A DNA stretch of 64,000 nt from Flaccisagitta enflata. Its lineage: Eukaryota. Location: assembly GCA_965153355.1 (NCBI GenBank), contig OZ231126.1, positions 36,890,001 to 36,954,000 of the forward strand, read 5' to 3'. A program made the position numbers and the translations under genes. The notes below the pieces were generated by a model. The model did no database searches and was not told the origin of the DNA. It saw only the letters and a list, made by a program, of their open reading frames with translations. Below are positions 1,092 to 54,300 of the stretch, piece by piece. The stretch's first letter is position 1. Each line of letters opens with the position of its first letter.

Positions 1092-1127
1092 GGAAGAGAG
1101 AGAGAGAGAGAGAGGGAGGGAGAGAGT

Positions 1128-1182
<55 letters not shown>

Positions 1183-2098: not shown

Positions 2099-2214
2099 TT
2101 CTTCAAAGGGTTTACATCAATTCTCTGCTATAAATTGTACCTACTCATAAAAGTCACAACTATTGGGAATTTTTTAAAACTCATACCCAGTTAAGGCCCA
2201 CTGTGTAAAGCCAA

Positions 2215-2500: not shown

Positions 2501-2660
2501 TGTGGTTATTGGAAAAAAGTCGAATTACGCAATTCGACTTTTTGAAGCATAAGAGAGAAATAAAGTTTTCCATTTTTGGTTTGAGGCAATTTTATGAAGT
2601 TGGGTAGTTTTAGGGCTGGGAGTTAACATTTTTTGATATTCATAGCTTAGAAAGAGCATA

Positions 2661-2802
2661 TTTTTAGATGAGTCATCGCATCTCTATAAGAGGGTCTGTC
2701 TGTCCATCGGTCCGTTGGTCCGTCGTTCCATCGGTCCGTTGGTCCGTTACGCCTCTTCTAATATCACGCGAATGACAGCATCGAGTTGTGTCGAGGCTTG
2801 TT
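2661..2802 (+). mobile_element. HINE-like element, tttttagatgcgtc..cgcatctct subfamily
   Basis: tttttagatgagtcatcgcatctctataagaggg hairpin head, (GTCC)-like microsatellite, end gaggcttgtt; a reverse-orientation relative ends at 4608. Confidence 0.65.
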
Positions 2803-2857
2803 CTCTTTCAAAATAGCTGTAATTCAAGTGCTACGATCATTGAATTTTGTTATGAAT

Positions 2858-3312
2858 TTTCAATGCATGCACGCGACACTACACCCGCTTGTTGGTCAGG
2901 TCGGTCCATCGACCCCTTTGGGGCCGCTGCCCTGCTCCCCCTTCAACTTCAAGCACAACCTACCCAGCATGGCACGGGTACCGCTGACCATCTAACGCTT
3001 TCGCAACTATTTGTGATATAACGTCAACTCTTAAGTCATTTTAGTTCATTTAAAGTCATTGATAGTTATTCCAAGTCATTCTGAGTCATTCTAAGTCATT
3101 TTAAGTCATTCTAAGTCATTCTAAGTCATTTTAAGTCATTTTTGGTCATTAGGGTCATTAGTCATTAAGAGTCTTTTTTGGTCATTTTAAGTCACTTTAA
3201 GTCATTCTAAGTCATTCTAAGTCATTCTAAGTCATTCTAAGTCATTCTAAGTCTTCCTAAGTCATTCAAAGTCTGCAAGTCTCGCACGCGACTTATAGGT
3301 GTTGGCCTTGTT
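2858..3312 (+). mobile_element. Compound HINE-like element(s) with internal 10-bp aagtcattct array
   Basis: Head gcacgcgacactacacccgct, internal aagtcattct repeats 3030-3270, tail gcacgcgacttataggtgttggccttgtt identical to the tails ending at 35639 and 55133. Confidence 0.7.
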
Positions 3313-3676
3313 GAATCTTATTTTAGTTTTTCGCATTTTTGCAAAGATCAATATTTTGTCATTGATCCCGACACAAAATAAAAAAAAATCGAAAAAAATT
3401 TCATTCGAATTTTTCGTAAATAAATCTTTAAAAAATCATAGCGCGAAAAATATTTGTCGTAGAGAATTCTGCTTGGTGCCAAATGAAAGAGAATAATCAA
3501 ATTTACTTACCCTATAAATTTCATTGGAGGCCTCAATCAGCCGGATGAGATTCACAACTTCCTCATAAGAAAATGAAAACCCTGTTTCTCTCGAATATGT
3601 CAAAAAGTCGAAGACTGACTTCGACTTTTTTCCCGATCATCAACTGATAAGCTTTACGTCCCTCCACCTCGTGTTT

Positions 3677-4142
<466 letters not shown>

Positions 4143-4479
4143 GCGAGAGAGGGGGACTTTGTCTCACTGTCATGTTTTAGATGCGTTTTGTAGAGGGTCC
4201 ATTCGTCCATCCGTCCGACCGTCAGTTACGCTTGTGCAAAAAAGCGGCGATATCGTAGACATGAATAACAAGCCCGAACTGGCAACGATGCGTCCAAACT
4301 GTGTCTCTGCTTATATTGATCATGTGACACATATGGATTGACAGATGGACAAACAGACAGATGGAACGACAAGAGTAGTAATGAATGACATTTTATTCGT
4401 CATGACATGACAGAAGCACACAAACAATCTTTATGGAGGCTCTCATGTTTGTCTCGCAGTAGATTCAGTGTAGGATCTC

Positions 4480-4608
4480 GTCGTGGCCGAAAACAGCTGA
4501 AAACCGCGGTTTTTGCACAGGCGTAACGGACGGACGGACCGACCGACGGACAGACGGACGGCCGGACGGACAAACCCTCTTATAGAGATGCGATGACGCA
4601 TCTAAAAA
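4480..4608 (-). mobile_element. HINE-like element 5' part, tagatgcgtc subfamily
   Basis: Reverse complement reads tttttagatgcgtcatcgcatctctataagagggtttgtccgtccggccgtcc; left boundary approximate. Confidence 0.6.
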
Positions 4609-5544
4609 CTCGTGCCGCTGGGAAAGGCTAAAAAGGGGTCTTACCCTGCATATTCCATGAAGTTTAGAATTTTCTTTGTTTTTTTTTTTTTTTTATAGTT
4701 TTTTTCTACTAAGCTATGAGTGAAAAGGATTTTGGATGAATTCCCTTGAAAGCCAACGACTTCCTTCCTCTATCTGACATCAATCATTGATGTTTAAGAC
4801 AATCGTTTTCTTTTTATTTAATAACAGAGAATGTTTTGAAGGAAAATTAGACCAGAGAAAAGTGGCGAAATCAGAAGTCACGAATGCCCAACTGAAACGA
4901 TCTTTAGGGTGATTTGAGGCGCTTGTTTGATATTCCATTTTATAATCAGTCTGTCCGTCCATCCCTCATTTTGAATAACGTTTGAAGAGCTGGGGTATAA
5001 TTCACATATGCCAGAAATCGACTCTTAAACTGAAGTCGTTCGATGTTAAAATTGTAATTTTTTGTGAACTTTTTTTTTAATAAGCAAAAAAACGGTGAAA
5101 CGCGCTCCTTTGTGAATTTAAAGCTTGGGAGTCGTGAAAGATAGACACAGCGGACCATGAAAAGGAAGATGTCCCTCTCATCAGCAGACCAAATGAAATG
5201 ACAAAAATGACAGAAGGGACAGGATTGACTTGTAATAGTAGCAGAAACGGCGTGAAATGGTTTGCAATGATTTGGCATGAGGGGAAAGTTGGCCCATGGT
5301 CTCGCTCTTGCTCTCTCACTCTCGCTCTCTCGCTCCTGCTCTCACTCTCTCGCTCTCTTGCACTCTCGCACTCTGGCTATCGCTCTCTCGCTATCCCTCT
5401 CTGGCTATTGCTCTCTCACTATTGCTCTCTCCCGCATTCGCTCTCGCTGTCTCGCTCTCTCTCTTGCTCTGTCGCTCTCGCTCTCTCTCTCATTCTTCAC
5501 TAGTGATCATAGTGGAGATGAATTTAAATTAATGTTATGATATA

Positions 5545-5900
5545 TGTCTGAGCATGCAAATATAGGAAACATGTTTTTGATTATATAGCTGCTCAACTGT
5601 GAAAGTGTTTTTGAGTATTCTAGCTCATTTAGCTCAGCCTTTTTTTTACGTGTCTGAGCATGCAAATATAAGAAAGCATGTTTATGAGCAGAGCTGCTAA
5701 ACTATGTAAGTGTTTTTGAGAATTCTAGCTCATTTAGCTCATTTTGCTCAGTCTTTTTTTTATATCTAAGTGGGACAAATGAATAAATGTTTTGATGTGT
5801 GTCTGATCATGCAAATACAAGAAAGCATGTCAGTGAGCATAGGTGGTTGTCTGGGTGAGTGATTTTGAGTATTTTAGCTCTTCTAGCTGATTTGGCCCAA
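5545..5900. repeat. Three diverged copies of an ~85-100-bp repeat
   Basis: tgtctgagcatgcaaata...ttttgag..ttctagctcatttagct near 5545, 5651 and 5800. Confidence 0.7.
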
Positions 5901-6069
5901 TCCTATTTTTTTATGATTTTAAGTTTAATCTATACATCAAATTCTCTTGATTTAATATAACAAATAAAAAAAAATGCAGTGACTGAAAACAAAAGTTAGG
6001 TGAAAAACGACCAATCCTTACGACTTTTTTCCTCACGGCGATAGCCGCCATCACTGGTAATTCTTTCTA

Positions 6070-8183
6070 CAGTACCGGAATCAAAGAACTGGTGATAAGG
6101 AGGGAAGCCATATCTCTCCAATTACAAGGATATGAGATCTGAAATTTTTCTGTGGTGTGCACCTATAGTACCCCCACCCCCCATAAGGGTTTGGAGCTGT
6201 TCCGGGCAATTTTTGTTTTTGGTTGTCAAAAAAATTTTTTTCTAAAAATTGCTATTGTAGGCTAAAAAATTTATTTCAAAAATTGTCTTTTATGTTAAAT
6301 ATAGGTAATACCAAGAGCTACAAATTTCATTTTTTGAAAAATATTTTCCGCCAATTTTTAAGGGAACGACACTAAAAAAACAAAAATTTCAAAAAAATGA
6401 AAAACAGTTATAATTTCCTAAATAATTGGCTTAACATGATAATTTTTGGCATGAAAGTAGTCCTGAGAACTTTCAATGTGTATGCAAAATTTCAACAGTC
6501 ATAGTTGAATTTTAAAGGAGTTATAGCATTTTGAAATTTTAATGATTTTTTGTAAAAAACATTTTTTCCTATGAAATTTTTTTTTGTCAACCATTTTTCT
6601 TAAAATTTCATATACAAACAAAATAACTGTTGAATTTTTGCTTCCAAAAAAAATTTGGCCACTGTGACCCCTTAAAAAAAAATTTTTTTCTCAAAAATTG
6701 CCAAAATGACCCATTTTTCAAAGTTAAATAAAAACTGTTCCTGTCATCTGATCATCTTCATTTTTGGTGGAGTTGTTATTTATTATCTACCCTAACTTCA
6801 CCTAAAATTTGAGCTCACTGCGCCAAACGGTTGCGGAGATATTGACTTTCAAAGTTACTTTGTCAGAGCAAAATCAGCAAAATTTGCATTTTGGCCATTT
6901 TTGAACTTGCATAAAATTTCATTTTTTCTTCCAGAGACCTCCATTTTAGCTGAAGTGACTCAGGTTTAAGCATATATTCATATTCCAAAATTTCACACTT
7001 GTCAGCCAAGCCGTTTTAGGGATATGATGGTCCAATGTTTTTAAAAATAAGCAAAAATTTTTCCCAAAATGGTTTTCAAAGGGGGGTTCAACACAATTGG
7101 GAATTATCTAATTCACCCAGATCCAAAACCCGGAGGACATCCTTTTTTTTTAAATTTTTTTGAAAAATTTTCTTTGTAATTTTTGTTGAAAAATTGGTGT
7201 TTTTTAAAACTTTGGACCATCATATCCCTAAAATGGCTTGGCTGACAAGTGACAAGTGAAATTTTGGAATATGAATATATGCTCAAATCTTAGTAACTTC
7301 AGCTAAAATGGAGGTCTCTAGAAGAAAAAATGAAATTTTATGCAAGCTCAAAAATGGCCAAAATGCCAATTTTGCTGATTTTGCTCTGACAAAGTAACTT
7401 TGAACGTCAATATCTCCGCAACCATTTGGCGCAGTGAGCTCAAATTTTAGGTGAAGTTAGGGTAGATAATAGGTAACAACTCCACCAAAAATGAAGATGA
7501 TCGGATGACAGGAACAGTTTTTATTCAACTTTGAAAAATGGGTCATTTTGGCAATTTTTGAGAAAAAAATTTTTTTTTAAGGGGTCACAGTGGCCAAATT
7601 TTTTTTGGAAGCAAAAATTCATCAGTTACTTTGTTTGTATATGAAATTTTAAGAAAAATGGTTGACAAAAAAAAATTTTATAGGAAAAAATGGTTTTTAC
7701 AAAAAATCATTAAAATTTCAAAATGCTATAACCCCTTAAAAATTCAACTATGACTGTTGAAATTTTGCATACACATTGAAGGTTCTCAGTACTACTTTCA
7801 TGCCAAAAATTATCATGTTAAGCCAATTATTTAGGAAATTATAGCTATTTTTCATTTTTTTGAAATTTTTGTTTTTTTAGTGTCGTTCCCTTAAAAATTG
7901 GCGGAAAATATTTTTCAAAAAATGAAATTTGTAGCTCTTGGCATTACCTATATCTAACATAAAAGACAATTTTTGAAATAAATTTTTTAGCCTACAATAG
8001 CAATTTTTAAAAAAAATTTTTTTTTGACAACCAAAAACAAAAATTGCCCGGAACAGCTCCAAACCCTTATGGGGGGTGGGGGTACTATAGGTGCACACCA
8101 CAGAAAAATTTCAGATCTCATATCCTTGTAATTGGAGAGATATGGCTTCCCTCCTTATCACCAGTTCTTTGATTCCGGTACTG
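6070..8183. mobile_element. Non-autonomous Tc1/mariner-type foldback element with ~980-bp TIRs and TA target-site duplication
   Basis: TA|cagtaccggaatcaaagaactgg ... ccagttctttgattccggtactg|TA; arms about 6070-7048 and 7200-8183 are highly similar reverse complements; ~150-bp spacer; no transposase ORF. Confidence 0.9.
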
Positions 8184-8627
8184 TACAGTGGGACGTTCCA
8201 TGTTAAATTTCATTATTGTACCATGTACCATTTTACGCCCTTTCATTCTTTCTCGTCAGGTAAACGGGTGATAAGAACAACAGATTTTCCTTATGAAAGA
8301 AAACAATCATAAAACAATAAGGCATAAGGGTTAAACAGTGCATGAAGACAATCAGCACTCGCTCGAAATTTGAAATATAATTTTGACGGCTGAGGTATCG
8401 TACAGGACATCTAGTTCAAAGGGTCGTTCTAGGACTATATAATAAATTTATGTCCCTGGTCGGCATTGAATAAGGCCAGAAGCGGGATGCGGGATACGAC
8501 ATGTAGACGGTTGTCACGACATGAGTGGTTTCATGAAAAGATATTGAAAAGAGACTCCGTAAAACTCGGTTGTAGATTTCAGTGCTTATCTTGTTTTGTT
8601 TGTCTCGAGCGTTAACCGCGAATCTTC

Positions 8628-8697
8628 ATGGAAGCAGAACAGAAAGCGGAAGCGATGGCATTTCGAATTTTCATTCCTGCTCATGATGATATTTCAG
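8628..8697 (+). CDS. Putative exon 1 of + strand gene (MEAEQKAEAMAFRIFIPAHDDIS/G)
   Basis: ATG at 8628, GT donor at 8698, phase 1, compatible with the acceptor at 9374-9375. Confidence 0.45.
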
Positions 8698-8740
8698 GTA
8701 GCATTTGCTTGCATATTTAGGTATCCTTTTCTTTTTTTCA

Positions 8741-8930
8741 TTCATTCATTAAAACATTCATTCATTAAAACATTCATTCATTAAAACATTCATTCATTCA
8801 TTCATGCATTCATTCATTCATTCATTCATTCATTCATTCATTCATTCATTCATTCATTCATTCAATCTTTCATGTATTCAAGCATTCATTCATTCATTCA
8901 TTCATTCATTCATTCATTCATTCATTCATT
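8741..8930. repeat. (ATTC)n microsatellite
   Basis: Direct reading. Confidence 0.9.
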
Positions 8931-9173
8931 CTATCATTCTTCCATTTATTTAATCATTCTCCTATGCCTTTACTATATTCATTTATATATTCTTTCGTTT
9001 GTTCCATCCATTCATATATGAATCATTTATTCATTCATTAATTCACTCATTTATCAACTCTTAACTTGATTATCACCTATTGTCTCTTAAATTTATGCGT
9101 GCAACTTCATTCCAGTTCCACGTTCTTATAATTTTTTTCATCACAGACCGTGCTTAACGGTAATTTCCTAACC

Positions 9174-9330
9174 TTTTTAGTCGCGGACACGGGACTCTAC
9201 ACCTTGCCGTGTCGGTAGGTCGGTCCGTCCGTCCGTCCGTCCGAAATATTTCAGAAATTGCGATCAGTTTTCGCATTTCTGCTCCTGCCCAATCGTCCGC
9301 GACTGGATTGCCGTGTATCCGGCCTTGTTT
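9174..9330 (+). mobile_element. HINE-like element
   Basis: tttttagtcgcggacacgggactctac head, (GTCC)n, tail gccgtgtatccggccttgttt. Confidence 0.75.
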
Positions 9331-14179: not shown

Positions 14180-15129
14180 GAAACACAAATGTTGCCTTCG
14201 GAGGGAAGCCGTCATACAAAGTTTCATGCAAATCCGTTTAAAAATGGCGAAGTTATGCATGTTTTCCACTTTGAGGCTAGTAGGGTGGTTAGGTGGTAGG
14301 CTGGTTTGGATAAATAGTGTGCATATGTTGAGTTCTTCCATTTAGAGACTCCATACCAAGTTTCAACCAAATTGGTTGAGCAATGTCCAATTTATGCAAG
14401 TTTTTCACTTTTAGACCAGTAAGCTGGTTGGGTGGTAGGTCGGTTTGGCCAGTTAGCATGCTCAAACATAAATAAATCACATACATGTGTTGAGTCCTTC
14501 CATTTGGAGACTCCATACCAAATTTCAACCAAATTAGTTGAAAAACGCCAAAGATATGCACATTTTTCACTTTTAGGCTGGTAGGCTGGTTGGGTGGTAG
14601 GCTGGTTTGACAGGATAAATAGTGTGCATATGTTGAGTTCTTCTATTTAGAGACTCCCTACCAAGTTTCAACCAAATTAGTTGAAAAATGACAAAGTTAT
14701 GCAAGTTTTTCACTTTTTAGTCGGTAGGCTGGTTGGGTGGTAGGTCGGTTTGGCCGGTTAGCATGGTCAAGTGCATATGAATCACATACATATGTTGAGT
14801 CCTTCCATTTAGAGACTCCATACCAAATTTCAACCAAATCGGTTGAAAAACGCCAAAGTTATGCACTTTTTTCACTTTTAGGCCGGTAGGCTGGTTGGGC
14901 CGGTTGGGTTGGTCGGATCACAAAAATCGGATAGGATGTAAAGCGCCTTACCCTAGTACAACTTCCCACCAAATATAAACCAAATTGGTCAAAGCATAAA
15001 AAAGTTACCCATTTTTTAAAATCCGTAACAACGACAACGACAACAACAACAACAACGACAACGACGACGACACCCACCCGCCTTGAATTATAGTCCGTGT
15101 CGGAATGATATTCCGTCGCGGACAAAAAA
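14180..15129 (-). mobile_element. HINE-like element carrying a 162/143-bp alternating tandem array
   Basis: Minus-strand head ttttttgtccgcgacggaat-atc-attccgacacggac hairpin followed by a (GTC/GTT)n microsatellite; anchor gttgagt.cttccatttagagactcc at 14327, 14489, 14632 and 14794; left boundary approximate. Confidence 0.7.
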
Positions 15130-20791: not shown

Positions 20792-23323
20792 TCAGTCTTT
20801 GTCCTTCCCCGGTGAGGCATCTTTGAGTGCGAACCAGCGAGTGACGCTTTGATTGAGTTTATATTCTCCGAGATCGATGACGCGTATTCCGACGGTCGCC
20901 GGTTCGCGACTCCAAAACGATTTGTCGTTTTTCACGGCGACCGTCAGACGTTGCAGCTCCAACAACTCGCGCTTCAGATCGAAAATGAACGTCTCTTCGA
21001 AGGACGGATTGAGAGAGTCTTCGACGATTTTGGTCTTTTCGCTTCCGGAGATTCGATCCATGCTGAGTTTGACGTAGGCGTCGGTGTTGCCTTCTTCGTC
21101 GGCGGCGATGAGGCCTTTGCATTCGTGCACAACCAAGCGTAGGACGTTGCCCTCTTTCGGCTCTATGGTCAGACGGATCAGTCCAAAGCCTTCGTTTCTT
21201 TCATCGTTCAACCCTTGAATCTGCTCGCCGTAGATCTGCTCGATTTTGACGTGCGGCAAATTCTTCCAATCTTCCGGAGCGGCGGCATCAGCAGCCGCCT
21301 TTTCCGCTGTTGCGGCGTCGAGCGATGCTTCCTGGGTTTGATCTTTCTTTCGAGACGCGAGGAAAGATTGCGTCGGCGTGACGGACTTAGATTCTTTGTT
21401 CTCCGTTTCCTCATTTTCATCTTCTACCTTCTCAACTGCTTCTTTCTCTTCCACCTCCTCCTTCTCTTCCTCTTCCTCCTCATCGCCTACTTCGAAGATG
21501 CTTTCGTCGACGCCGAGAATTCTTAGGCAGATTCGGACAGAAAGTTTCGGCGGCGCCGTCAGTCCGAGTGACTTTGCGGCGCCCTTTTCTCCGTGCCATT
21601 GGCATTCCCAAATCCAATCTTTCATGGCCGTGATTTTGTTGAGATTGAACGACCATCGACCCAAAGGTTCTCCTTCTTTGTCGGCTTCATCCACGATCTT
21701 GACAAACAACTTGAGATCTTCGGGGAAATCTTGGACGAGATATTGGAAGGCCTCTTCCCATTTTGGCTCCGGTGATGCGGGTTGAACCGTCGATTCCTGT
21801 TTGGTCAGCTGCTCGTTACTTCCTTGCAACGTTAAAATTACTCTCAAGTTCTTCGTCCGCGGCTTTGTCTTCAAGCCTTCCACGCCGTACAGATGCACCA
21901 GGACAAACGATCTGGAGCCTTGCGTCAAGATTGGATCTTCATCGACTCTGAAGTTATTTCCGACAGAATTTGGCCTCAACAGACTCTTTTGAGCATAAAC
22001 GTCTTCATAACTGAATCCGGCGGCATCCACAGGTTCCGTCTTGAAGAAAGACCACAGCATCCTCACGTTGAAGATGGCATTATGTTCTTTGAGCGCCGGC
22101 ACGGCGATGCATTGGGGCAAATAACCGAGATCCTTGACCTTTTTGATACCGACGTCGTAGTCGCACAGAGCCTCGTCCTCTGTCACGTCGAAAAAGTCGA
22201 GATCGTCTCCGTCCAGCAACTGAATATTGAGCATTTGCTGCGACGACCAAACGACGAACTCGAAGACCTGATTCCAGACCGGATTCGGTTCGTTGGTGAT
22301 ACGCGCCGTCGACTTGTGCACGTTGCCGATTTGCATTTTCACGTAAGGATCTTTTTGATTGAAGAAATTATCGCTGACGAGATTCTTGGCGTTGACGACG
22401 TGGACTCGCAGGACGCCCTTCGGCAGCGGATGTCGCAGCAAATTCGTGTCGATATTCTCCATCAACGGCACTGGATAACGATTCGGCAGCACCATCATGG
22501 AAGCCAGCGTGCCGTCGATCACGCTCTTGATCTTCCGCTTCAAAGGCGAAAAGTCCATCATGTTGCCGACGTTGGTCAGATCGAAGTCCATGACGGGCTT
22601 GTTGAGGAAGTAGCAACAGAGTGAGCCGCAAATCGGGATTCGACCCGTCAAATTCTGCATCTCGACGCGCATCTTGCCGCTGAAGGAGACGTTTTTCAAG
22701 CCGACCGTCAAAGTCGGCGTCGCCAAATAGGCCAATTTGACTTTAATTTGCGCGTCACCGGCGTAGCAAAGTTCCATGTCAAAGGCGATGTCTGTTACGC
22801 GACCGTCGGGTCCCTCATCCGACTTTCGCATGCAGATATTGACAATGCGCGGCGCGATGTCGCCGACCGTGCATTTCTTGAACTCGAAGTTTTCGACGCC
22901 GTATTGCGCGATCATTTCCTTGTAAGATTGTTGGTTATCCTTGATATATTTGGCCACGTAGTCGTCGATAAAAGGCCACGCTTGTTTAACGATCTTGTTA
23001 AGCCAATCGACGCGTTCACGTTTCGGGAAATAGATCCAAGATGGAGGATCTCGCATGACGTCGACGATGGACTTGACGTCGCAAGTCGCGGCTTTCGATC
23101 GCATTTCGTCTTGACGACGATGTCGAAGTCGATCTCGTTTGCGGACGATGAAGGCGGCGAATCCGATCATGACCCACAGGAAGCTGAAGCCGAAGCGGCC
23201 CGTCAACCAGGCCGGGATGAGAATGAACAACCAACGAGCGTAGTCTGGCAGCATCGGTCCCGCCAGTTTGAAAAGGTCCAGACATTCTTGTTTCATTACT
23301 TCCAGCGTAGAATGGAGACCCAT
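20792..23323 (-). CDS. Esyt2: Extended synaptotagmin (E-Syt2/3-like): hydrophobic hairpin, SMP domain, three C2 domains; single coding exon, 843 aa
   Basis: N-terminal hydrophobic stretch, SMP start PSWIYFPKRERVDWLNKIVKQAWP, MMVLPNR, C2A PKGVLRVHVVNAKNL..DPYV..NPVWNQVFEF, C-terminal C2 LNPSFEETF..LTVAVKN..VTRWFAL. Confidence 0.92.
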   Translation of the reverse strand: MGLHSTLEVMKQECLDLFKLAGPMLPDYARWLFILIPAWLTGRFGFSFLWVMIGFAAFIVRKRDRLRHRRQDEMRSKAATCDVKSIVDVMRDPPSWIYFPKRERVDWLNKIVKQAWPFIDDYVAKYIKDNQQSYKEMIAQYGVENFEFKKCTVGDIAPRIVNICMRKSDEGPDGRVTDIAFDMELCYAGDAQIKVKLAYLATPTLTVGLKNVSFSGKMRVEMQNLTGRIPICGSLCCYFLNKPVMDFDLTNVGNMMDFSPLKRKIKSVIDGTLASMMVLPNRYPVPLMENIDTNLLRHPLPKGVLRVHVVNAKNLVSDNFFNQKDPYVKMQIGNVHKSTARITNEPNPVWNQVFEFVVWSSQQMLNIQLLDGDDLDFFDVTEDEALCDYDVGIKKVKDLGYLPQCIAVPALKEHNAIFNVRMLWSFFKTEPVDAAGFSYEDVYAQKSLLRPNSVGNNFRVDEDPILTQGSRSFVLVHLYGVEGLKTKPRTKNLRVILTLQGSNEQLTKQESTVQPASPEPKWEEAFQYLVQDFPEDLKLFVKIVDEADKEGEPLGRWSFNLNKITAMKDWIWECQWHGEKGAAKSLGLTAPPKLSVRICLRILGVDESIFEVGDEEEEEEKEEVEEKEAVEKVEDENEETENKESKSVTPTQSFLASRKKDQTQEASLDAATAEKAAADAAAPEDWKNLPHVKIEQIYGEQIQGLNDERNEGFGLIRLTIEPKEGNVLRLVVHECKGLIAADEEGNTDAYVKLSMDRISGSEKTKIVEDSLNPSFEETFIFDLKRELLELQRLTVAVKNDKSFWSREPATVGIRVIDLGEYKLNQSVTRWFALKDASPGKDKD

Positions 23324-23895
23324 TTTTGTTTATACTTTATTTAGGCAGTGAGGATTTCACTGATAATCTATCTGCCATCTATTTCTTTGTTCTGCTTTTT
23401 GCTTTTTTCCCCTTTTCGCAAAATTAAAAAAAGACCATGTTCATTCCCATGAAAGGTAGGTACGCATACGAATTAGAAGTTCAATGTTCAATATACAGCT
23501 TCTCCTAGACATAAATCAGGTTTCGACGTTCAAAGAATGGCCTCATTAAAAAAACTAAATGTTGCTCAGTTGATTAGACCGTGCTGAGGCAGATTTTGAT
23601 GAGTTGTCATTCCGGTAAAGCGTGCAGCTTGTAGACGTGTTCATGAGAATTGAGATCAGGTTTTTTTTTTGTCTTTTTTATGTTAGTTTTTTATTTTTGA
23701 CATTTTAAAGAAATGACAGTCGCCAGACCTGTTCTCTGGATGCAGTGGAGTGGGGACATTTTATTCGGAGACATTTTTTTGGTTTTGGCTCTTCGTTGAA
23801 CTCAATAAACACGGATGAAACCGGTTGAAGTCTCGGGTTGAACTTTTTGGATGTCACGCAACCTCTCTTTCCCTTTCATTCTCTCCTTCATTCTC

Positions 23896-24163
<268 letters not shown>

Positions 24164-24419
24164 TTCTATAAATATAATTGAAAAACAGATCGACTAATTC
24201 TTTTCTGCTTCATGCGGTTTAAAGTATTAAGTACCAATTTCACTGGTTGAAATGTTCAAAGGAAAAGAAGATTCAAATCGAGTAGATGTAACCTATCTTT
24301 GCTCTAACATTGATAGTATTGGGTAAATTGAACTGAAAGAGACAATCGACTTAACAAGTAGCTGATAGGACAAAGGGACGAATGTGCGTTAATGCCGTTA
24401 ATGCCTTGCTTTACACCCA

Positions 24420-24456
<37 letters not shown>

Positions 24457-24458
<2 letters not shown>

Positions 24459-24956
24459 TGAATTTACGGCATAGTTTCTTGCCGTCGGTTCACGCTTTTA
24501 ACGATTCACATGTCTATTTAGCTGAGCGTGAACATGTCCTTATTTTGTCTAATTTGCATATTGAGGTATGGATGAAATGTAAAGCCCGTCGTAATTCTAC
24601 ATAGCCGCCGATATGTCTATTTTTGTGGAGTAAAATCTATTAACGGACAGTTTGCCACCACACCTCTCAAAAAAGACACTAAATGGAACAAAAAGAGAGA
24701 AAAAATTAGTGCACAGATCGAGATAAAACGGTAAAACGATAAAACGATAAAACGATAAAAACGATAAAAATGACGCGATGACGATAAAAATGCCAGGCAA
24801 AAAAGATAAAAAAAAATGCACATTCCCAGGACGAAGGAGCGACGGAGAGTAAAATTCAAAGCAACTCCGTACAGCTACAGAAGCGACACAAAAGGGAAAG
24901 GGAAAGGTGACAAAAAAACGGCATCGCTAAAGTCAACAAAAGACACATTTTCCACA
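24457..24956 (-). repeat. 3' LTR
   Basis: tgtgaatttacggc...cacattttccaca; no differences seen by eye from 29564-30063. Confidence 0.92.
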
Positions 24957-27257
24957 CTCCCCCTGGGGTTTTCCAAAAAAGTTTCGAGAGGGGGGGCAAA
25001 ACCAAGGGCAACATATATATAAAAAAAAGAAAAAAAAAGGGGGGGGGGATCGGATAAGGATGGGGACACACAAACGAACCAGCACACACCACTCGCACAT
25101 TCCCCCCATGGGGACGAAGGGTGCTACTGCTCCGCAGCTTGCTCAAAATACAAACACCCCCTTCCCGTCCCCTTACCCGACCATGCTACCCAAATGATAA
25201 AATCGGCGACAAAACTACAGCTAATTCAAATGGCAAATTCAAATAACAATTCAGATAATATATCAATGAGACGCACCCCTACCCCCATCAAGACCCACCA
25301 CCCACTGTCTACAGGGCCGGCACCCAATCACCGACCAAGGTGGCGCCGCTGCCTTAGGCACAGTTCCAGCTTATGTCATTATCAACGTTACCATCGACGA
25401 TGAACCAACAGCTTCACGGCGGCCTTGGGGCCTTGCTGCGCAACTACCAGGACAGTGAAAGAAAAAAGACAGGAACCAACCCTCACCCTTAGTGGACAGA
25501 CCCAAGGGATATAACCAACGACTAACGACCAAAGAAGGCCTGAAACATAACCACTAAAGGGACCATCCACGCCCGGGGTAAATATGGAAACCTGCCCTTG
25601 GGGCCCGCCCAACAAGACAGGAAGGGGAGGGACTCAATAAAGGGCAATTCAACGCACACCTCCCTCTATCTCTCCCTTGAAAATCTCCCCCCCCCCTCAA
25701 CAATGTGTAACTACCCCAACCACACCGCTGTCCGGGAGTATAATCACTCGCGAATGGATGAGGCTTCTTTTGTTGAGACATGGGGATCATCGAGCAGACA
25801 AGGGCCGCCGCCAAATTGTCAATTAACTTGAACGCCCGCACGAAAAAGTTAATGTCACCATGGCTGCCAAGACGAGACACGAGAGAGTCGGCGTTGAGGC
25901 GCATTCACCTAGGTAAAAATGGGTGTGGGATGGGGAAGGGGGGTTTGGGGCCTTGTGGTATTTCCAGCCATGGGAACGTGACCAGAAACACATAAGGGAT
26001 TAAAAAGGAGCAATGATAGAAAAACACTATACCTAAAATAAATAATTAAAACCAAATTAAACGTGTAAATGACACGTTAACAACGGTTACGAGGATAAAA
26101 CGCAAAACGCAAAACGATAACACAATTACACAATAAAAACGCGACACGCAAAACGACAACGAGAACCAACAACGACACCCAATGAATAATAACCCAAACA
26201 CGAGACGAGCCCCCCAAAAACGCAAGGCGTAAAACAGGAAAAAAGGAAAAGAAAGGAAACGGAGAGGGACAGGGGGGAAAAAAATCAGCGCCAACATGAG
26301 AAAAGCAAGGCACAGAAAGAGAGAGAAAAAGAACAAAGCGCGCCCGGCGGGCAAGAGAGGGAAACGACACACCCGAACGCAAGAAGAAACGGGAGAAAAC
26401 AAAAACAAAACGAACGAAAGAAGAGACAGAAGAAGAAATAGAACGAGAGAGAACAAGAAACAGAAGAAGAAAGAGAACAAGAAAGAGAACGAGAACAAGA
26501 AAGAGAACGAGAAAGAGAACGAGAGAAAACAAGGCCAGACACATGGCCAAAACCAGCCACGGGTACAAAACAAAACAGAACGAGAAACAGAACGAGAGAG
26601 AACAAAAACACTACGCAAAACAGAACAAGGCCCATCACCTAAAATGACGATGACATAGAGCGCGGAAATCGATTTTCAACGAATCCTCTCCTTCTTTACC
26701 CCCATCGAACGTCGAGAGACGTAGCCAGTGGAGGAGGAGGAGGAGGAGAAGACGGAGGAAGGGAGATAGATCGGCGCCATCTTGGAAACGAATCGAGACG
26801 ACGAGCGCCGCCATCTTTCTTCCTGCGTGGGCCGGAAGTGATCACGCCCGCGCTCAAGCAATTGATAAAAACGTCCGGAAGCTACTGTAGGGTGAATATA
26901 AAGAAAACACACAAACAGAGGACGAAAAAACGTTATCAAAACACAAAACAGATAAGGGGCGGGAAAAGAAAGGGATATGCATTGAAGCGAATTGACACAG
27001 TATAATCATAATCAAGCAATCATCAATGCCAATCACTCTTTCAATTAAACTTATCCGTTTTAGAAGTGTTGATATGGAACGCATTTGAATGCATTCCATC
27101 GCCAAATCCAGCTGTCTAGGGCTACTCCACCGGACAAATGAAGGACCACCCAGCGGCTGGGGACGCGTCTGTTTGCAATCACGTGACTTGTAGGACATGG
27201 AGGGCGCATGAGCGGAAATGAGGCAAAGAAGAGGACAGAATGGATGGTAGGAGTGAA

Positions 27258-28436
27258 TCATTGATTAAAATTACGGCCGTGGAGGATTGTTGCATGGACT
27301 CGGCCGCACATTTGACACGTAGGTTTGTTGTTGCAGTTTTTGGCAGTGTGTCCCTTCTCTAGGCAATGGTAACAAAGTTCGCGCTTTGATAAAATGTCCA
27401 CCCTTGAATCGACAGAGACGTCCATTAAAATGGGGCATTGAAACGTCGCATGGGGATGGCTACAAATCTCGCAGAGTCCATTTGGCTGATGTTGGTCGTG
27501 TATGGTGGAATCTTCTTCGGGCGGCGCCTGATATCTTTTGATAATTGCCCATCGTGACACCAACTCTACCAAATTATGGTAGTTATAACCTCCCCGGCCA
27601 TCTTGTTTTGATTCAAAGTCCTCCGTCCAAAATTTGTCAGCGAGATGAGGGATCCGGTTGTTGAGAATGTCACGAATTCTGTTTTCTCTATGACACATCT
27701 CTTCCTCTCCACACACCCTCGCAATCTTCTCAGCCTTCAACAATTCCGCATATAGGAGAAAATGGGCCCTGTAATCATGTGTTGCGATTGGAGGAGCGGA
27801 TGCGATTCCATCAAGCAGGGCGCCCACCATGCTTAACTCCCCCTGGAATATCATATCCATCCGTTCAAAACACTTCTCCAACTCAACGGCGGCAGTCTCT
27901 GCTGTCACACCGATTGTCGCCGTCATGATGACATCAGCTACAGGGCCACTAAACCAATGTGGTAACTCCAAGAGCATGTCCATTTCCGTAATTCCCTTAT
28001 TATTTGCCGCCTCCAAAAATCTCCGTTTCAGAATAATGTAATCTGTGGGCGTCAAGGATGTATGCGGTGTTCTAGGCCGTGCCTTTTCCAAATTCTTGTA
28101 GCCAATTTCTCTCCATCGAATGAAATTATCCGCATGGGAAGCTGCAAGGAATTTCTCAAAAGCGCCATCTGACAAGGATTGATGGGCTAAGCCCTGTCGA
28201 GCTGCTTGAGCACCCGTTTGACGCCGCGTTAAAGAAGATGGAGGAGGAGGAGGAGGAGAAGGATTGAGATGATGGCGATGGATTTGTGTCATCTGAGGTT
28301 CGCGGTAATCTGTGTCTGTCGGGCGTTCCTGGGGTGGTTGCTGATGTCGATGACCACCGCCGACTCCTTCCGACTGCTCATGATCTCCATTCACCTGCCT
28401 GACAATCTCACCATCACCATTCGCAGCTCTAGCCAT
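27258..28436 (-). CDS. gag: BEL/Pao-type Gag, C-terminal part
   Basis: CEICSHPHATFQC (CX2CX3HX4C), CYHCLEKGHTAKNC (CX2CX4HX4C), CQMCGRVHATILH (CX2CX3HX4H); the frame stays open upstream to about 28574. Confidence 0.85.
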   Translation of the reverse strand: MARAANGDGEIVRQVNGDHEQSEGVGGGHRHQQPPQERPTDTDYREPQMTQIHRHHLNPSPPPPPPSSLTRRQTGAQAARQGLAHQSLSDGAFEKFLAASHADNFIRWREIGYKNLEKARPRTPHTSLTPTDYIILKRRFLEAANNKGITEMDMLLELPHWFSGPVADVIMTATIGVTAETAAVELEKCFERMDMIFQGELSMVGALLDGIASAPPIATHDYRAHFLLYAELLKAEKIARVCGEEEMCHRENRIRDILNNRIPHLADKFWTEDFESKQDGRGGYNYHNLVELVSRWAIIKRYQAPPEEDSTIHDQHQPNGLCEICSHPHATFQCPILMDVSVDSRVDILSKRELCYHCLEKGHTAKNCNNKPTCQMCGRVHATILHGRNFNQ

Positions 28437-29137
28437 CCAATCACCTTTGACCTGACATCGCTGTTGATGATGTTGTTGACGAGCCTGTTGAGACGCTGGT
28501 GGTTGCTGATGGCGCTGCTGGAGCTGCTCGTGTACCGGCTCCTGCGTCCATCCGTGGAGGAATGATGCGTTGGCCTAACATCCCGCTGCTCTAACGCGCC
28601 ACCTAATCCACCTCGATTCAGGGCATCCAAATTCATGCGCTGCGATGTCTTGTCAATCGCTTCCGCACCCACCCCCAGCTTATGAGGGGCACGTTGGCGA
28701 TATTTAAGGATCTCCTCCGTTGTCGGGAAATTGTCGGAATACAAGTCTGTTGCGAAAAATTTCATCTTAGCCCATTTGTTGCGCACAGTTTTCAGGCTAT
28801 TTGCAGAGTAAGTCCACAAGTCATATGCACCATCAAGCTCGCCCGATTTCGAAATGTCGTTGGTTTTAGCGAGGTAGCGATATACAATTGCTTGAAGACT
28901 ATCACGCGCAAAGTCTGAATCTGCGGCCGCCATTTCGTCGTCTGGGTTGGTTACCACGTCGTTAAAGGCCATTTGAGCCTCGTTGAGGGCAACCACCACA
29001 TTTGCACGCATCTCACGCAGCTCGACGATGAGTTCATGCTGGCAACCCGCAAAATATGATGCCAAGGATGAAATTGAGGTGTCATGCACACCTCCGCCAT
29101 CCATCGTTGCCGATGGAACAGACATTTTAGCGTCCAA
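28391..29137 (-). CDS. Upstream ORF of the LTR element, probably the helical N-terminus of Gag offset by a -1 frameshift
   Basis: 248-aa ORF starting about 430 nt after the 5' LTR and overlapping the Gag frame. Confidence 0.6.
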   Translation of the reverse strand: MDAKMSVPSATMDGGGVHDTSISSLASYFAGCQHELIVELREMRANVVVALNEAQMAFNDVVTNPDDEMAAADSDFARDSLQAIVYRYLAKTNDISKSGELDGAYDLWTYSANSLKTVRNKWAKMKFFATDLYSDNFPTTEEILKYRQRAPHKLGVGAEAIDKTSQRMNLDALNRGGLGGALEQRDVRPTHHSSTDGRRSRYTSSSSSAISNHQRLNRLVNNIINSDVRSKVIGWLELRMVMVRLSGR

Positions 29138-29549
29138 TGGAAACTGGCGCGATAACGTTTTTAGAGTCCATTTTGCTTGGACGTAATCACTTGCTTAATT
29201 CACGTCGAAATTCAGAGTCAGTTAAGCATCACCCGACGGTTTTTAGCACGCAGAAAATGGACCAGGTTCGCTACCACCGACCATGTCAAAGTTCAGCGTC
29301 AGTTAAGCATCACCCGTCGGTATTTCGCGTGCAAGATCAGGTTTGCTACTACCGACGCCAATGCACGTGGGGAAAGGCGCACATACATTTCGACGATAAA
29401 AGGACGATTCATCAGCGATTTATCAACGCGTGTTTCTCTCATTGACATCACGTCCCGGCGCCCCGGCGCCTGGGGCCGTCACTTAGCATGACAGCAGCCT
29501 TGGGTCAGGGCAGGAGACACGAATAGACGAGTGAAGACGGCGTCGATTT

Positions 29550-29563
29550 TTAATAGATTTTAC
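29550..29563 (-). promoter_or_regulatory. Candidate self-priming primer-binding site, complementary to LTR positions 29737-29750
   Basis: ttaatagattttac (29550-29563) is the exact reverse complement of gtaaaatctattaa (29737-29750) and abuts the LTR edge; no TGG tRNA-type PBS at this junction. Confidence 0.7.
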
Positions 29564-30058
29564 TGTGAATTTACGGCATAGTTTCTTGCCGTCGGTTCAC
29601 GCTTTTAACGATTCACATGTCTATTTAGCTGAGCGTGAACATGTCCTTATTTTGTCTAATTTGCATATTGAGGTATGGATGAAATGTAAAGCCCGTCGTA
29701 ATTCTACATAGCCGCCGATATGTCTATTTTTGTGGAGTAAAATCTATTAACGGACAGTTTGCCACCACACCTCTCAAAAAAGACACTAAATGGAACAAAA
29801 AGAGAGAAAAAATTAGTGCACAGATCGAGATAAAACGGTAAAACGATAAAACGATAAAACGATAAAAACGATAAAAATGACGCGATGACGATAAAAATGC
29901 CAGGCAAAAAAGATAAAAAAAAATGCACATTCCCAGGACGAAGGAGCGACGGAGAGTAAAATTCAAAGCAACTCCGTACAGCTACAGAAGCGACACAAAA
30001 GGGAAAGGGAAAGGTGACAAAAAAACGGCATCGCTAAAGTCAACAAAAGACACATTTT

Positions 30059-30063
<5 letters not shown>
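29564..30063 (-). repeat. 5' LTR
   Basis: Direct repeat of 24457-24956, upstream of gag on the minus strand. Confidence 0.92.
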
Positions 30064-30139
<76 letters not shown>

Positions 30140-33100
30140 CACACGCACACACACACACCCACAGAGTTACCTCACTAACTTTAACTTCCTTACTATCAAT
30201 TGCAATTGCCTCCAGCATAAATTCAGATTGAACAATTATTAAGAAATTGAACAATTCAAGTAGAATACACTACTTACTGTCAAAGAAATACAACGAAGCA
30301 TTATAACGCGTTGGAAATTATATTTATTTCTATGCTTACATTACCAATTAAACATGAACTGAATAAAAATTGATACTGAGTTGGTAGCTCTTGTGTTGGT
30401 TACGCATATTCAAAGAAATATTTTTTTCTGCAAATATATCATGGCATATCCACACCCCGTCATTATACCGCCAACGGCCAACGTCGTAGGTCATCAACAA
30501 AGATAACTTTTATTACAATTAAGTTTCAAGTATTTCAAGTTAGCGTTTGAATATTATAACAGGAAAGACAGAGTGGAGAGGATATGAATTCTCAAAATCA
30601 CGAAAAGATCTATGTAAAAAAGAGTCTAAAAAAAGACTAGCAACTCATACATTAAGGCTCTATGACGTAAGTAGTTAACGTTGAAAGACTAGGTTCAAGC
30701 CCATCTACTGATGAAGACGTTTTATTTTTTGTTTTTGTTTTTTAGTTTTATTCACAACGACGTAGTCTCATCATGAAAGCCAATGGTAAACTAAAAAAAT
30801 ATCTACAAGTTTCTTTTTCGCATGAGAAAAAAACATGCAGATCGTTGTACAAGTTTTCGTTTTTGTTTTATACAATCCGTAACAGTTGTGATGGCTCATC
30901 TAAGGCTAACATAACATCGATAGTCAAATGAATAAAAAAATACTAATTTGAGCTAAACGAATTACATAAAAAAAGGATTTAGCTATGAATCTTTGTATGA
31001 AATTTTTTTCCTCTTGAAAATGACAAAACAAACGAACGAGTCCACTTGAATTAAATCCATAATTTGAGTTAAAGATGATGGAAAATCGAGGGGTTTTTTT
31101 AGGTGATGCTAGTTTCAGACCAAAAAGCACCAAGTAATTGTATCCTTGCCTTCCCAGCTTCTCTACACTTGAAATTGTTTATTTTTACCTTTAGCACGTA
31201 GTAACAGAAATTTCAATTGATCACAAAACTAGTATACAAAATTAGTATAATTGATGAATCGTCATGAAAGACGCATCTTAGGAGCATGCACTTAGAGACA
31301 AATCATGGCACTAATCCTCAAAAACACAAAGAAATAATTGACAGAGAACAAATTCAGAAATATCATCCGACAACTTTTGAAACAATCGGAATCTGTACAA
31401 AAAAAATACAAGTTAACAGAATTAGATCGTAGCAACAAGCAACAACAATAAATAACTTGAAAATTCTTCATTTCTTTTATAGAAATAGCATTTTGCAACT
31501 CCCACGCAAATCATGGTGGTTAATAATTTGCTTTTCTTATGATTCTTTTTTGTTCTTCTTCTGGCCCCACACAGGAGAATTTCTGATTTTCAATGGCGAC
31601 TGAAATATACAACCAGAAGCACCATCGAGGATATCGTATTGTTTGCATGATCAAAAAACGAATCAAAATGAAACTTTTTTATCGTAGTAATAATTTGTAT
31701 CGCGGTACATCGAGTTAGATAGTGAATTTAAGTCCGAATCGACATCCTCAAAGGTTAAAATCTACCGCAGACGTCAAAAGCCTCATAGAGTGAATTACGT
31801 TCCACGTAATTCAACATTGTACAAGTGGGGACAGTAAGCCCACGAAAAGTGAATCTAAAATTTGAAAAAAAGATCTTAGAGCGATAGGAAAAGAATGTCA
31901 TATAAACCTGATGATTGATCAATGCGTAATAGGAAGAGAATTCAATAAGGTGACTTTGTGTTAGGAAATTGATTGTCAAATTTTGAATTATTTTCTTATA
32001 GTATAATTGTAAATATATGGTAGTAGATCTATTTTCAATTTAGATAGGAATCATATTCGAATTTCGATTGAATAATATGGCCGTAACAACGGCATGATTA
32101 AATTTCATGATATTTTCGTGTTTAATTGCATCTTGATTGGAAACAGTGATAATAGTTTATTTGTAGAAAAAAAAATTATGTACACAGTGCCGAGCTACGC
32201 TTAAAGTCTTTGCGAGCATCAGTGCTTCTTTCTTCAACTGAAATATTAAATTTGCTCTATGATATGTTGAAATACTATTTCAAAACTCAAAAATACAATT
32301 TTGTGTTTAGTTGTCAAATAGAAATTGATAGAATTGTTAGAAAAGGAATATTCTTTTTGTCTCACTTAGCCTTTGTTATCATTTCATCCAAAGATTGTCG
32401 CTCGAAAAAAAAAAAATGAGATGGAGACAATGTCATCGGATCAAACATGACACGACATGACATATACATGTCGGGCCCCTAAAAATCAACTATCATACAG
32501 GGTCAAAATGGAGGAATGAAAAAAGGTTCTCAATCGGTGATTGTATAAAATCTAACTATGTTTGGAAATATAGAATAAGTATCAAAATAAGCACAGGAGG
32601 TTAAACCGATGACACCAAATTACTGACAGTTTTTCGTTCAAGCTCTCAGAGCCGAATCAAATTGACGCATTCGAAAAAAAAACGTTGCAAACGGCTGGCG
32701 ACACGTTTGTCCCATATTTTTCTTTTTCCGCACCCAACCTAGGCTTACAAGGATCGGGCTGCTTTTTTTTCGATAATAAAACAAAAATCTTTTCGGCATC
32801 ATTGAAAATCTACATATTTCGAAGATTATACTTGAGTTGATCGATTCAGCTCGCGAAGGAAAGTTCTTTTTCTTTCAATTACGTCATGAAGATTGAATTT
32901 TGTGTTGTACGGATGTTCGTAGAGAAGCATGCGCATGCGCGCGTGGGGTCGGGGCCTCGGATCACAATTGTAATTACGCATACTCGGGTGTCAAGGGAAT
33001 GTACAAAAAAACGTTGTTTTTTTTCATTGTTAGATTCGTTTTTGTTCTTCCGATAAGTTTAGAGAGAAGAACCACGAGCAAAACTGAGTGGAATTTGCAT

Positions 33101-51300: not shown

Positions 51301-54300
51301 AGATTTTTGGTTGTTGAGCCCTAAAAACGGTCATAATCGAGGATGTGGTGGTAGGTGTGGGTGGTAAACTGGTTCCTTTGGAGGCATTTCAGCCCCTAAT
51401 TTTTTTTCTTATCAAAGTACAATAGTCAAGGAGGGTATATACCAAAAATCAGCCAGGTGCTTGCATTTTTACAGTCGTGATGCGACTTTGAAAATCCTAG
51501 AAAATCCCTTTATATTTTAGACTCGGGTTATTGTCTCCCCCCTTATAAGAGTATCTTGCTAGTATCAGATTTGTAATTTTCAGCTTGTTTGTTAATTTTT
51601 TTTGTTAGACTAGCATATAAACATGTAAACAAAATGAAAATACCCTAAAATCCTCCAAAAATACCTGAAATTTGAGAAAAATTCACTATAAAAACTCTCA
51701 TTTTTGCTTAAAATGGACTATCGCCAAATAAGGTCAAAATGAGTGTTTTTCAAGCTATTTCTGACTTGTGTAGGCTATGATATACCTACTAAATGGCCCT
51801 GATTTGGTTTTTCACTATTCCAAAGTCTCATTTTTTCAGTTTTTTATTGTTCCAGAATAGTTTTTGAAAAAATGTGAGGTGCCCCCTCTAATAAGGCGGG
51901 AGACAACACCCCTTGCGACCTCTTCTCGTCACAGGGTAGGAACTACTAAACAAAAGATGTTATTGTGAACTCAGAGGTATAGTAGGGTGGTTAGGTTTTA
52001 GTAGGCCCCTAAGATGAAATGCTTAGGGATAGATCAAAATGATTTTTGGACTGAGATGGATGGATAAGGGTGTAAAGACCTCAAATTTGGGTAGGATGAA
52101 TTAAAAAAGCAAATTAGTCAAAAATAGGTGGAGTTTGCTTGTGGACAATATTGTGAGAAAACAAATTCATGGATTTTGATTTTTTAGCCTAAATCCCTTC
52201 AGAGACATCCAATGAGCACTACCCAAGTACAGGACACCCCAGGAAAATTCATTTTTTCAACATATTGAAGTTAGATTTTTGGTTGTTGAGCCCTAAAAAC
52301 GGTCATAAACGAGGATGTGGTGGTAGGTGTGGGTGGTAAACTGGTTCCTTTGGAGGCATTTCAGCCCCTAATTTTTTTCTTATCAAAGTACAATAGTCAA
52401 GGAGGGTATATACCAAAAATCAGCCAGGTGCTTGCATTTTTACAGTCGTGATGCGACTTTGAAAATCCTAAAAAATCCCTTTATATTTTAGACTCGGGTT
52501 ATTGTCTCCCCCTTATAAGAGTATCTTGCTAGTATCAGATTTGTAATTTTCAGCTTGTTTGTTAATTTTTTTTGTTAGACTAGCATATAAACATGTAAAC
52601 AAAATGAAAATACCCTAAAATCCTCCAAAAATACCTGAAATTTGAGAAAAATTCACTATAAAAACTCTCATTTTTGCTTAAAATGGACTATCGCCAAATA
52701 AGGTCAAAATGAGTGTTTTTCAAGCTATTTCTGACTTGTGTAGGCTATGATATACCTACTAAATGGCCCTGATTTGGTTTTTCACTATTCCAAAGTCTCA
52801 TTTTTTCAGTTTTTTATTGTTCCAGAATAGTTTTTGAAAAAATGTGAGGTGCCCCCCTCTAATAAGGCGGGAGACAACACCCTTGCGACCTCTTCTCGTC
52901 ACAGGGTAGGAACTACTAAACAAAAGATGTTATTGTGAACTCAGAGGTATAGTAGGGTGGTTAGGTTTTAGTAGGCCCCTAAGATGAAATGCTTAGGGAT
53001 AGATCAAAATGATTTTTGGACTGAGATGGATGGATAAGGGTGTAAAGACCTCAAATTTGGGTAGGATGAATTAAAAAAGCAAATTAGTCAAAAATAGGTG
53101 GAGTTTGCTTGTGGACAATATTGTGAGAAAACAAATTCATGGATTTTGATTTTTTTAGCCTAAATCCCTTCAGAGACATCCAATGAGCACTACCCAAGTA
53201 CAGGACACCCCAGGAAAATTCATTTTTCAACATATTGAAGTTAGATTTTTGGTTGTTGAGCCCTAAAAACGGTCATAAACGAGGATGTGGTGGTAGGTGT
53301 GGGTGGTAAACTGGTTCCTTTGGAGGCATTTCAGCCCCTAATTTTTTTTTCTTATCAAAGTACAATAGTCAAGGAGGGTATATACCAAAAATCAGCCAGG
53401 TGCTTGCATTTTTACAGTCGTGATGCGACTTTGAAAATCCTAAAAAATCCCTTTATATTTTAGACTCGGGTTATTGTCTCCCCCCTTATAAGAGTATCTT
53501 GCTAGTATCAGATTTGTAATTTTCAGCTTGTTTGTTAATTTTTAGTCGCGTGCACGCGACTCTACAACCCGCTCCGTCGGTCCGTCCGTCGGTCGGTCCG
53601 TCCGTCGGTCCGTCCGTAACACTTTGCTTTTTAACGTCTTTTTGGGTCGTCTGGAGTTATTTTGAGTCATTTTTTTGTTGTTTTTGGGAATTATTGGTTG
53701 CTTTTAGTCATTTTTGGTCATTTTTGGTCATTTTTGGTCATTTTGGTCATTTTGGTCATTTTGGTCATTTTGGTCATTTTGGTCAATTTTGGTCATTTTT
53801 GGTCATATTTCATCATTTTTGATCGTTTTTGATCATTTTTTGATCATTTTTGATCATTTTTGGTCATTTTTGGTCATTTTTGGTCATTTTTGGTCATTTT
53901 TGGTCATTTTTGGTCATTTTGATCATTTTGGTCATTTTGAATTTTTGGTCATTTTTGGTCATTTTGGTCAAATTGGTCCTTTTGATCATTTTGGTCATTT
54001 TGGTCATTTTGGTCATTTTTGGTCATTTTGGTCATTTTGGTCATTTTGGTCATTTGATCATTTTGATCAGTTTAGGTCATTTTGATCATTTTGGTCATTT
54101 TGGTCCTTTTGATTATTTTTGGTCATTTTGGTCATTTTGGTCATTTTGGTCATTTTTGGTCATTTTGGTAATTTTTGGTCCTTTGATCATTTTGGTCATT
54201 TTGGTCATTTTTGGTCATTTTTGTCATTTTTTGGTCATTTTGGTCATTTTGGTCATTTTGGTCAATTTGGTCCTTTTGATCATTTTTGGTCATTTTTGGT

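Follow-up and report, generated by a model that had tools for sequence, protein, structure and literature searches.

In the mode of reverse transcription described for Tf1, a segment from the 5' end of the element's own mRNA anneals to the primer site and, once RNase H has cut it free, is extended; the accessible parts of the Tf1 literature further depict this primer duplex as flanked by two additional duplexes, giving a three-duplex ‘pretzel’. The Tf1/sushi group consists, in the same portions of the literature, of Ty3/gypsy chromoviruses, among them Tf1 of Schizosaccharomyces pombe, Tf2, Tj1, sushi-ichi, Maggy, Skippy, Cft-1 and others. Experimental proof of self-priming is, in the published text available, restricted to Tf1 and its relatives, and prediction from sequence has extended the mode to the plant Tcn1 chromoviruses and to the TAR lineage of Ty1/copia elements (Houba, Osr-1). 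Self-priming is thus not confined to the Tf1/sushi group, a point on which an earlier note on this DNA has to be amended; judging from TAR and Tcn1, it probably arose on more than one occasion, and a BEL/Pao case is on that account plausible and not unprecedented in principle. The BEL/Pao elements are normally described as tRNA-primed, as that note also held: the ICTV profile of the Belpaoviridae (genus Semotivirus), in its accessible sections, says so and gives a site of 18 nt with complementarity to the 3' end of tRNA-Arg or tRNA-Gly. A search of the literature in which subscription journals were partially covered returned no report of self-priming in a BEL/Pao element, in agreement with what the note had supposed, and an earlier report may exist.

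The element described here matches the Tf1/sushi group in the mechanism that its layout suggests and, judged by its BEL/Pao-like Gag, lies phylogenetically outside that group. It is an LTR retrotransposon on the minus strand of the window (the whole 64-kb stretch of Flaccisagitta enflata DNA that was analysed), where it occupies 30063..24457, or 5607 nt. In the LTR comparison, plus-strand positions 24455-24957 and 29562-30064 align with 0 mismatches over 503 nt; read against the microsatellite flanks and the purine tract, the true LTRs are 500 nt long with TGTGG...TTCACA ends, the 5' LTR at 29564..30063 being 100% identical to the 3' LTR at 24457..24956. The edges are blurred by one and two extra chance matches because the insertion sits inside a (GT)n microsatellite, and for the same reason a target-site duplication is unreadable. 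This microsatellite is long (window positions 24400-24456 and 30064-30160), and CT, GT, TTTC and CAA/GTT microsatellites also lie around the insertion site. Independent backing for the edge at 29564 comes from contigs of the sequencing run X17, at least three of which match up to this position and then continue into unlike flanks; another X17 contig, among the matches listed, ends two bases from it.

Reading inwards along the minus strand, the primer-binding site GTAAAATCTATTAA (29550..29563) lies directly after the 5' LTR and is followed by an untranslated leader (29126..29549), the gag start being placed by alignment to a database protein, P0001. Gag itself comes in two parts, an N-terminal region (28391..29125) whose open frame ends at 28391 and, in another frame, a second part (27258..28574, with its stop at 27258-27260) that encodes a DUF1759-like capsid region and three zinc knuckles. 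The next 2.3 kb (24965..27257), which include a low-complexity stretch at ~26046-26675, have no recognisable coding capacity and no pol by tblastn and Pfam, and the polypurine tract AGGGGGAG (24957..24964) stands directly before the 3' LTR. The LTR length, which falls within the 0.2-1.2 kb range given in the accessible part of the ICTV profile, the TG...CA ends and the short purine tract are all as in BEL/Pao elements. Within the 5' LTR, the self-primer model sets the boundary of an inferred U3 of 313 nt (29751..30063); beyond it lie the proposed self-primer, TTAATAGATTTTAC plus T (29736..29750), which matches the primer site exactly in reverse complement and would form the 5' end of the predicted transcript, and the rest of the inferred R-U5 (29564..29735), folded in the predicted RNA structures into hairpins enclosed by the primer duplex. 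By eye, neither a TATA box nor an initiator motif was seen at 29750, nor an AATAAA or other poly(A) signal in the expected places of the LTR, where the poly(A) site and the R/U5 boundary were likewise not found. The leader contains a 44-nt imperfect direct repeat (29201-29244 and 29282-29325, 86% identity), and U3 a short tandem of TTTTATCG-like units (29855-29905) whose copy number varies among family copies, with loose contig ends at 29858 and 29866.

The surroundings of the insertion have features of their own. An 845-codon open frame (20792-23329, minus strand) is separated from the 3' LTR of the element by 1.1 kb. It encodes an SMP lipid-binding domain together with three C2 domains and looks like a single-exon, extended-synaptotagmin-like host gene. 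Five tandem copies of a ~150-nt unit with 70-81% identity (families D6 and D8) occupy 14213-14914. On the other side of the element, units of ~971 nt that share 98.4-99.6% identity form a satellite array from 36354 to 64000, at least 27 kb to the window end, which arrays of short period (9, 14 and 11 nt) interrupt at ~53543-55130.

The central observation concerns the junction at which the 5' LTR meets the interior. The minus strand reads GTAAAATCTATTAA at 29563..29550 and TTAATAGATTTTAC at 29750..29737, and these two stretches are exact reverse complements over 14/14 nt, which becomes a duplex of 15 bp once the last base of the LTR is counted (in folding, A 29564 pairs with T 29736). The LTR arm begins 187 nt and finishes 173 nt before the LTR end, and the pairing is anchored precisely on the base that follows the LTR. 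In any LTR element, the primer for minus-strand synthesis has to anneal immediately downstream of U5. When the first 30 nt after the LTR are compared with the whole element, the sole match of at least 9 nt is the LTR arm, together with its copy in the 3' LTR. The first TGG occurs 203 nt downstream of the LTR, so there is no site here for the CCA end of any tRNA; ARAGORN found no tRNA gene in the 64-kb window, and no Rfam family was found in 24300-30200 at E up to 1. Both arms hold 12/14 AT letters and the LTR is 40% T, yet with this T-rich composition allowed for, the analytic chance expectation of such a 14-mer anywhere in the LTR is 1.4e-5, or 1.9e-4 if the site is allowed to start 0-5 nt after the LTR, and an anchored match of at least 14 nt arose in 1 of 20,000 shuffled LTRs. 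As in the Tf1/sushi elements, in the accounts of them available, a primer site after U5 pairs with the element's own 5' LTR, a tRNA site is lacking and the 3' end of the presumptive primer abuts U5. The case resembles TAR and Tcn1 in that self-priming is suggested by sequence alone and outside Tf1/sushi proper, and differs from them in superfamily and in host kingdom.

RNA folding predictions show how this pairing could operate in a transcript. If the RNA begins at 29750, the minimum-energy and centroid structures alike contain the 15-bp duplex, which closes off R-U5 as a loop made up of hairpins. Averaged over the 14 pairs, the pairing probability is 0.97 with the 5' end at 29750, 0.91 at 29765 and 0.85 at 29770, and does not exceed 0.003 for any 5' end tried at 29780 or further upstream, where the duplex is lost because U3 sequence then competes. 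Transcription is accordingly placed by the model, as a prediction, within ~20 nt upstream of the arm (29750-29770). The ~100 nt at the end of U3 (to ~29848), which are conserved among the LTR subfamilies, may be the core promoter. The predicted fold differs in detail from that of Tf1: the central duplex of 14-15 bp closes a loop of hairpins, whereas the primer pairing of Tf1 spans 11 nt, and the two extra duplexes that flank it in the ‘pretzel’, in which sequences beside the primer site pair with those just behind the primer, are not predicted here.

The affiliation of the element was read from its Gag. The internal 4.6 kb encode gag only, with the two parts in different frames of the open-reading-frame list, and the second part carries zinc knuckles of the forms CX2CX3HX4C, CX2CX4HX4C and CX2CX3HX4H, the cysteine and histidine columns of which are invariant in an alignment of the Gag family. 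P0001, the closest database protein (610 aa), is 78% identical over the C-terminal 319 residues and runs in a single frame throughout. Its residues 1-176 align to 29137..28607 with 75% identity and its residues 136-610 to 28538..27261; therefore, the gag frame in this copy is broken between ~28607 and 28538. A tblastn search with five BEL/Pao polyproteins gave gag matches only and no pol, either in the element or in the 64-kb window, and two internal-region ORFs tested against Pfam matched 0 families. The copy is non-autonomous because it lacks pol, its gag being split over two frames as well, and the combination of identical LTRs with the loss of pol implies recent mobilisation in trans.

Searched directly against Pfam, the Gag gave no DUF1759, Retrotrans_gag or Ty3 capsid match and a weak zf-CCHC match at E 0.051, and a DUF1759 match appears in 1/24 members of the Gag family. 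By contrast with these direct searches, hhalign comparison of a 23-sequence profile of the Gag family with the Gag regions of seven BEL/Pao polyproteins returned a probability of 99.8% (E 2.3e-29) over 253 columns, which span DUF1759 and all three knuckles. A phmmer search with the Gag yielded 3114 matches at E up to 1e-3, the near ones being proteins of 370-900 aa that consist of Gag only. The best 150 of these 3114 matches include 13 proteins longer than 1000 aa, 11 of which were scanned for domains: BEL/Pao marker families (Peptidase_A17, DUF1759, DUF5641) occur in nine, one has a single zinc knuckle only and one nothing, and gypsy- or copia-only domains occur in none (0/11). In P0130, which is one of the long homologues, BEL/Pao domains occur together with Tf2-like ones; this model may be nested or mis-joined. 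The nearest Atlas clusters are DUF1759 clusters, mostly from arthropods, which we treat as a lead only.

Judged by its Gag alone, the element is filed here as a non-autonomous BEL/Pao derivative. It shares with BEL/Pao elements the DUF1759-like capsid part and the three zinc knuckles, but unlike them it has a primer site of 14 nt that lacks TGG and matches its own LTR, in a copy without pol. The Gag being of the BEL/Pao and not the Ty3 kind sets it apart from the Tf1/sushi chromoviruses, as do the lack of pol and of a chromodomain in this copy and a host that appears to be a marine animal. In keeping its LTRs, primer site and purine tract while pol is lost, it resembles non-autonomous LTR elements (LARD/TRIM-type elements and gag-only parasites); unlike the LARD/TRIM type, it has retained a long gag, out of frame in this copy. 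Bivalve TRIMs have been described that have no clear tRNA site, and the accessible part of that description reports no self-complementarity for them.

Members of the same family are widespread in environmental data. Sequences matching part of 27300-30063 are present in 20 run rows from 11 studies, mostly marine metagenomes, with five recorded as RNA. Four runs (X1, X3, X15 and X17) were compared with 27000-30063 at 85% likeness, all of them, like each of the 24 runs available, as assembled contigs, in which neither the start nor the end of the RNA nor its poly(A) site could be read; in X17, an oligo-dT run, low cover of U3 carries no evidential weight. X1 holds 1448 contigs that match at 85% likeness or more. 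LTRs that are 100% identical, together with many contigs at 85-100% likeness in DNA runs and the presence of the sequence in RNA libraries, therefore indicate that the cis signals of the family have been working recently.

Variants of the LTR were recovered from metagenome gene calls as spurious ORFs, in a 109-aa frame that crosses U3 and the arm. Across 11 such proteins, with 54-84% residue identity to the window, which is also the range for their U3, the arm is unchanged in 11/11: it reads ...KLSVNRFY in nine variants (frame 0), PLIDFT in another frame (frame 1) in P0160, and VKSING on the opposite strand in P0164. The codon directly after the 15-nt arm differs in six sequences and the next codon in four, variation beginning one base past the duplex. 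This invariance is not specific to the arm, because the arm lies in a ~130-nt block that is conserved as a whole, the ~100 nt upstream of it being equally conserved. An ORF drawn across the primer site had three matches, none of which includes the site (each has a GTG start just inside the LTR, or comes from a 3' or solo LTR), and a leader ORF had two, neither of which reaches it.

The primer site itself varies between subfamilies. Among the matches listed, several runs have contigs that break off at 29551, a point of difference between subfamilies, and in one X15 contig the primer site differs in two of its middle letters and is followed by an additional T, the end of the LTR being different as well. 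Such a change is expected if primer sites track their own LTR and would not be predicted by a shared host primer; conversely, if the LTR of this subfamily kept the unchanged arm, the duplex would split into 7 + 5 bp, which would speak against self-priming. A separate X3 contig, again among the matches listed, connects 29551 with 29736, at which the two arms have their inner ends, and skips 184 nt. An artefact of alignment could account for it, as could a subfamily whose U5 has diverged.

More distant relatives were sought in three sets of contigs. The Gag scan recovered nine distant loci in metagenome contigs and three in genome contigs, and no Gag relative in viral contigs. Two DNA patterns were also run against the viral contigs: 33 matches to one of them had no similarity to the element and were rejected as chance, and the second had 0 matches. 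An autonomous partner was found neither in the window nor in the viral, metagenome and genome contigs, which gave distant relatives only. Both LTRs together are present in none of these relatives, so their LTR edges cannot be fixed. No clear second case of self-priming emerged from the distant BEL/Pao relatives L004, L005, L007, L009 and L043; L004, L007 and L009 do contain inverted pairs of 10-12 nt, which were rejected as a second case, being within chance expectation. The distant relatives neither supply a second case nor show tRNA priming.

Some of the contigs have further features. Because 1-108 equals 9096-9203 in L004 (metagenome contig, 1-9203), this contig is read as an autonomous BEL/Pao element whose assembly has collapsed into a circle, with one 2351-codon frame that holds DUF1759, RT, Peptidase_A17 and DUF5641; in it, 11 nt that follow a CA ~110 nt upstream of gag are by eye complementary to a site ~50 nt inside the presumed LTR start. 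The contigs L043, L044, L045 and L048 carry copies, 99% identical, of a BEL/Pao-like element whose frame runs to 2699 codons. That these contigs are assigned to bacterial MAGs from pond samples suggests that the bins contain eukaryotic contaminants. In L043 and L048, the sequence leading from the purine tract into the start of a gag has an end that resembles a splice acceptor.

Weighing these observations, we consider a recently inserted, non-autonomous BEL/Pao-derived element that would prime its own reverse transcription as Tf1 does to be the best explanation of the locus, with a probability of about 0.6. No RNA is known to contain the matching 14 nt other than the transcript of the element itself. 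We propose that transcription would start at, or within ~20 nt upstream of, 29750, and that the first 14-15 nt of the RNA would fold back onto 29563..29550, so that R-U5 would be enclosed as a 170-nt loop made up of hairpins. By analogy with Tf1, the RNase H of a partner element's reverse transcriptase would cut after the paired stretch, and the freed 3' end, lying exactly at the LTR edge, would be extended to copy the ...CA of U5. Plus-strand synthesis would then, as in retroviruses, re-copy the primer site from the primer, so that new copies would always carry perfectly matched arms. That this would be the first BEL/Pao (Belpaoviridae) lineage primed by the cleaved 5' end of its own RNA rather than by a host tRNA is a claim to which we give slightly better than even odds.

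The earlier note's reading of a self-priming BEL/Pao-like lineage is supported in part, and the transcript start near 29750 that it proposed stands here as a prediction. Its observations that held up were the 14-nt complementarity between primer site and LTR, an arm about 175-190 nt from the 3' end of the LTR (187 to 173 nt as measured), a pairing placed exactly at the LTR edge (an edge now established through the flanks, the purine tract and the X17 contigs), the lack of a TGG-starting tRNA site at the junction and a BEL/Pao-type Gag, the last being recovered by the profile comparison and the domains of 9/11 long homologues where direct Pfam searches miss it. What did not survive is the premise that self-priming is confined to Tf1/sushi.

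Among the other explanations, the inverted repeat could be a long-range structure of the 5' leader with a role in packaging, dimerisation or translation control, while priming takes another route. Retroviral 5' UTRs hold many long-range pairings, and the position of the arm within a wider conserved block would suit such a role; however, the pairing starts at the first base after the LTR, precisely where a minus-strand primer must sit, and no other candidate primer site is present, given how far downstream the first TGG lies. We therefore regard a purely structural role as unlikely.

Alternatively, the primer may be a host RNA, such as a tRNA fragment, a mitochondrial tRNA or a small RNA, that ends in ...TTAATAGATTTTAC, with the copy in the LTR incidental or otherwise used. 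Half-tRNA primers are known in Ty1/copia lineages, in the literature as far as accessible. Against this, the 14-mer is very AT-rich and has no tRNA-like end, the element has no tRNA or Rfam match, a coincidence of 1e-5 would be needed for the element to carry the same 14 nt, and the related subfamily in X15 has a different primer site, all of which leaves a host primer quite improbable.

Similarly improbable is a chimeric parasite of a known kind of self-primer, in which the cis signals derive from a Tf1/sushi-like (Ty3/gypsy) partner and gag alone is BEL/Pao-like. The copy has no pol by which its partner could be identified, and P0130 joins BEL/Pao with Tf2-like domains as such a history might. 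Yet the closest homologues of the Gag are Gag-only proteins of the same family, nine of the 11 long ones carry BEL/Pao domains and none has gypsy or copia domains only, and a Gag would presumably have to package RNA for, and assemble with, the Pol of its partner. Chance complementarity in AT-rich sequence, for all the AT content of the arms and the T content of the LTR, is very unlikely in view of the composition-corrected expectation, the single hit among the shuffles and an arm that is invariant in every LTR variant.

A self-priming BEL/Pao element, as favoured here, would contradict the description of the Belpaoviridae as host-tRNA-primed in the available text of the ICTV profile. If the reading is right, it adds another independent origin of self-priming, such that independence from tRNA primers would have evolved repeatedly across the superfamilies of LTR elements, and it bears on the idea, as put forward in the accessible literature, that hairpin priming is ancestral. 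There would also be a practical consequence, in that annotation pipelines based on tRNA sites may miss such elements in animal genomes or set their bounds wrongly. For the organism, it would mean that an abundant, recently active family of retrotransposons in a marine planktonic animal renews its primer site from its own LTR in each cycle.
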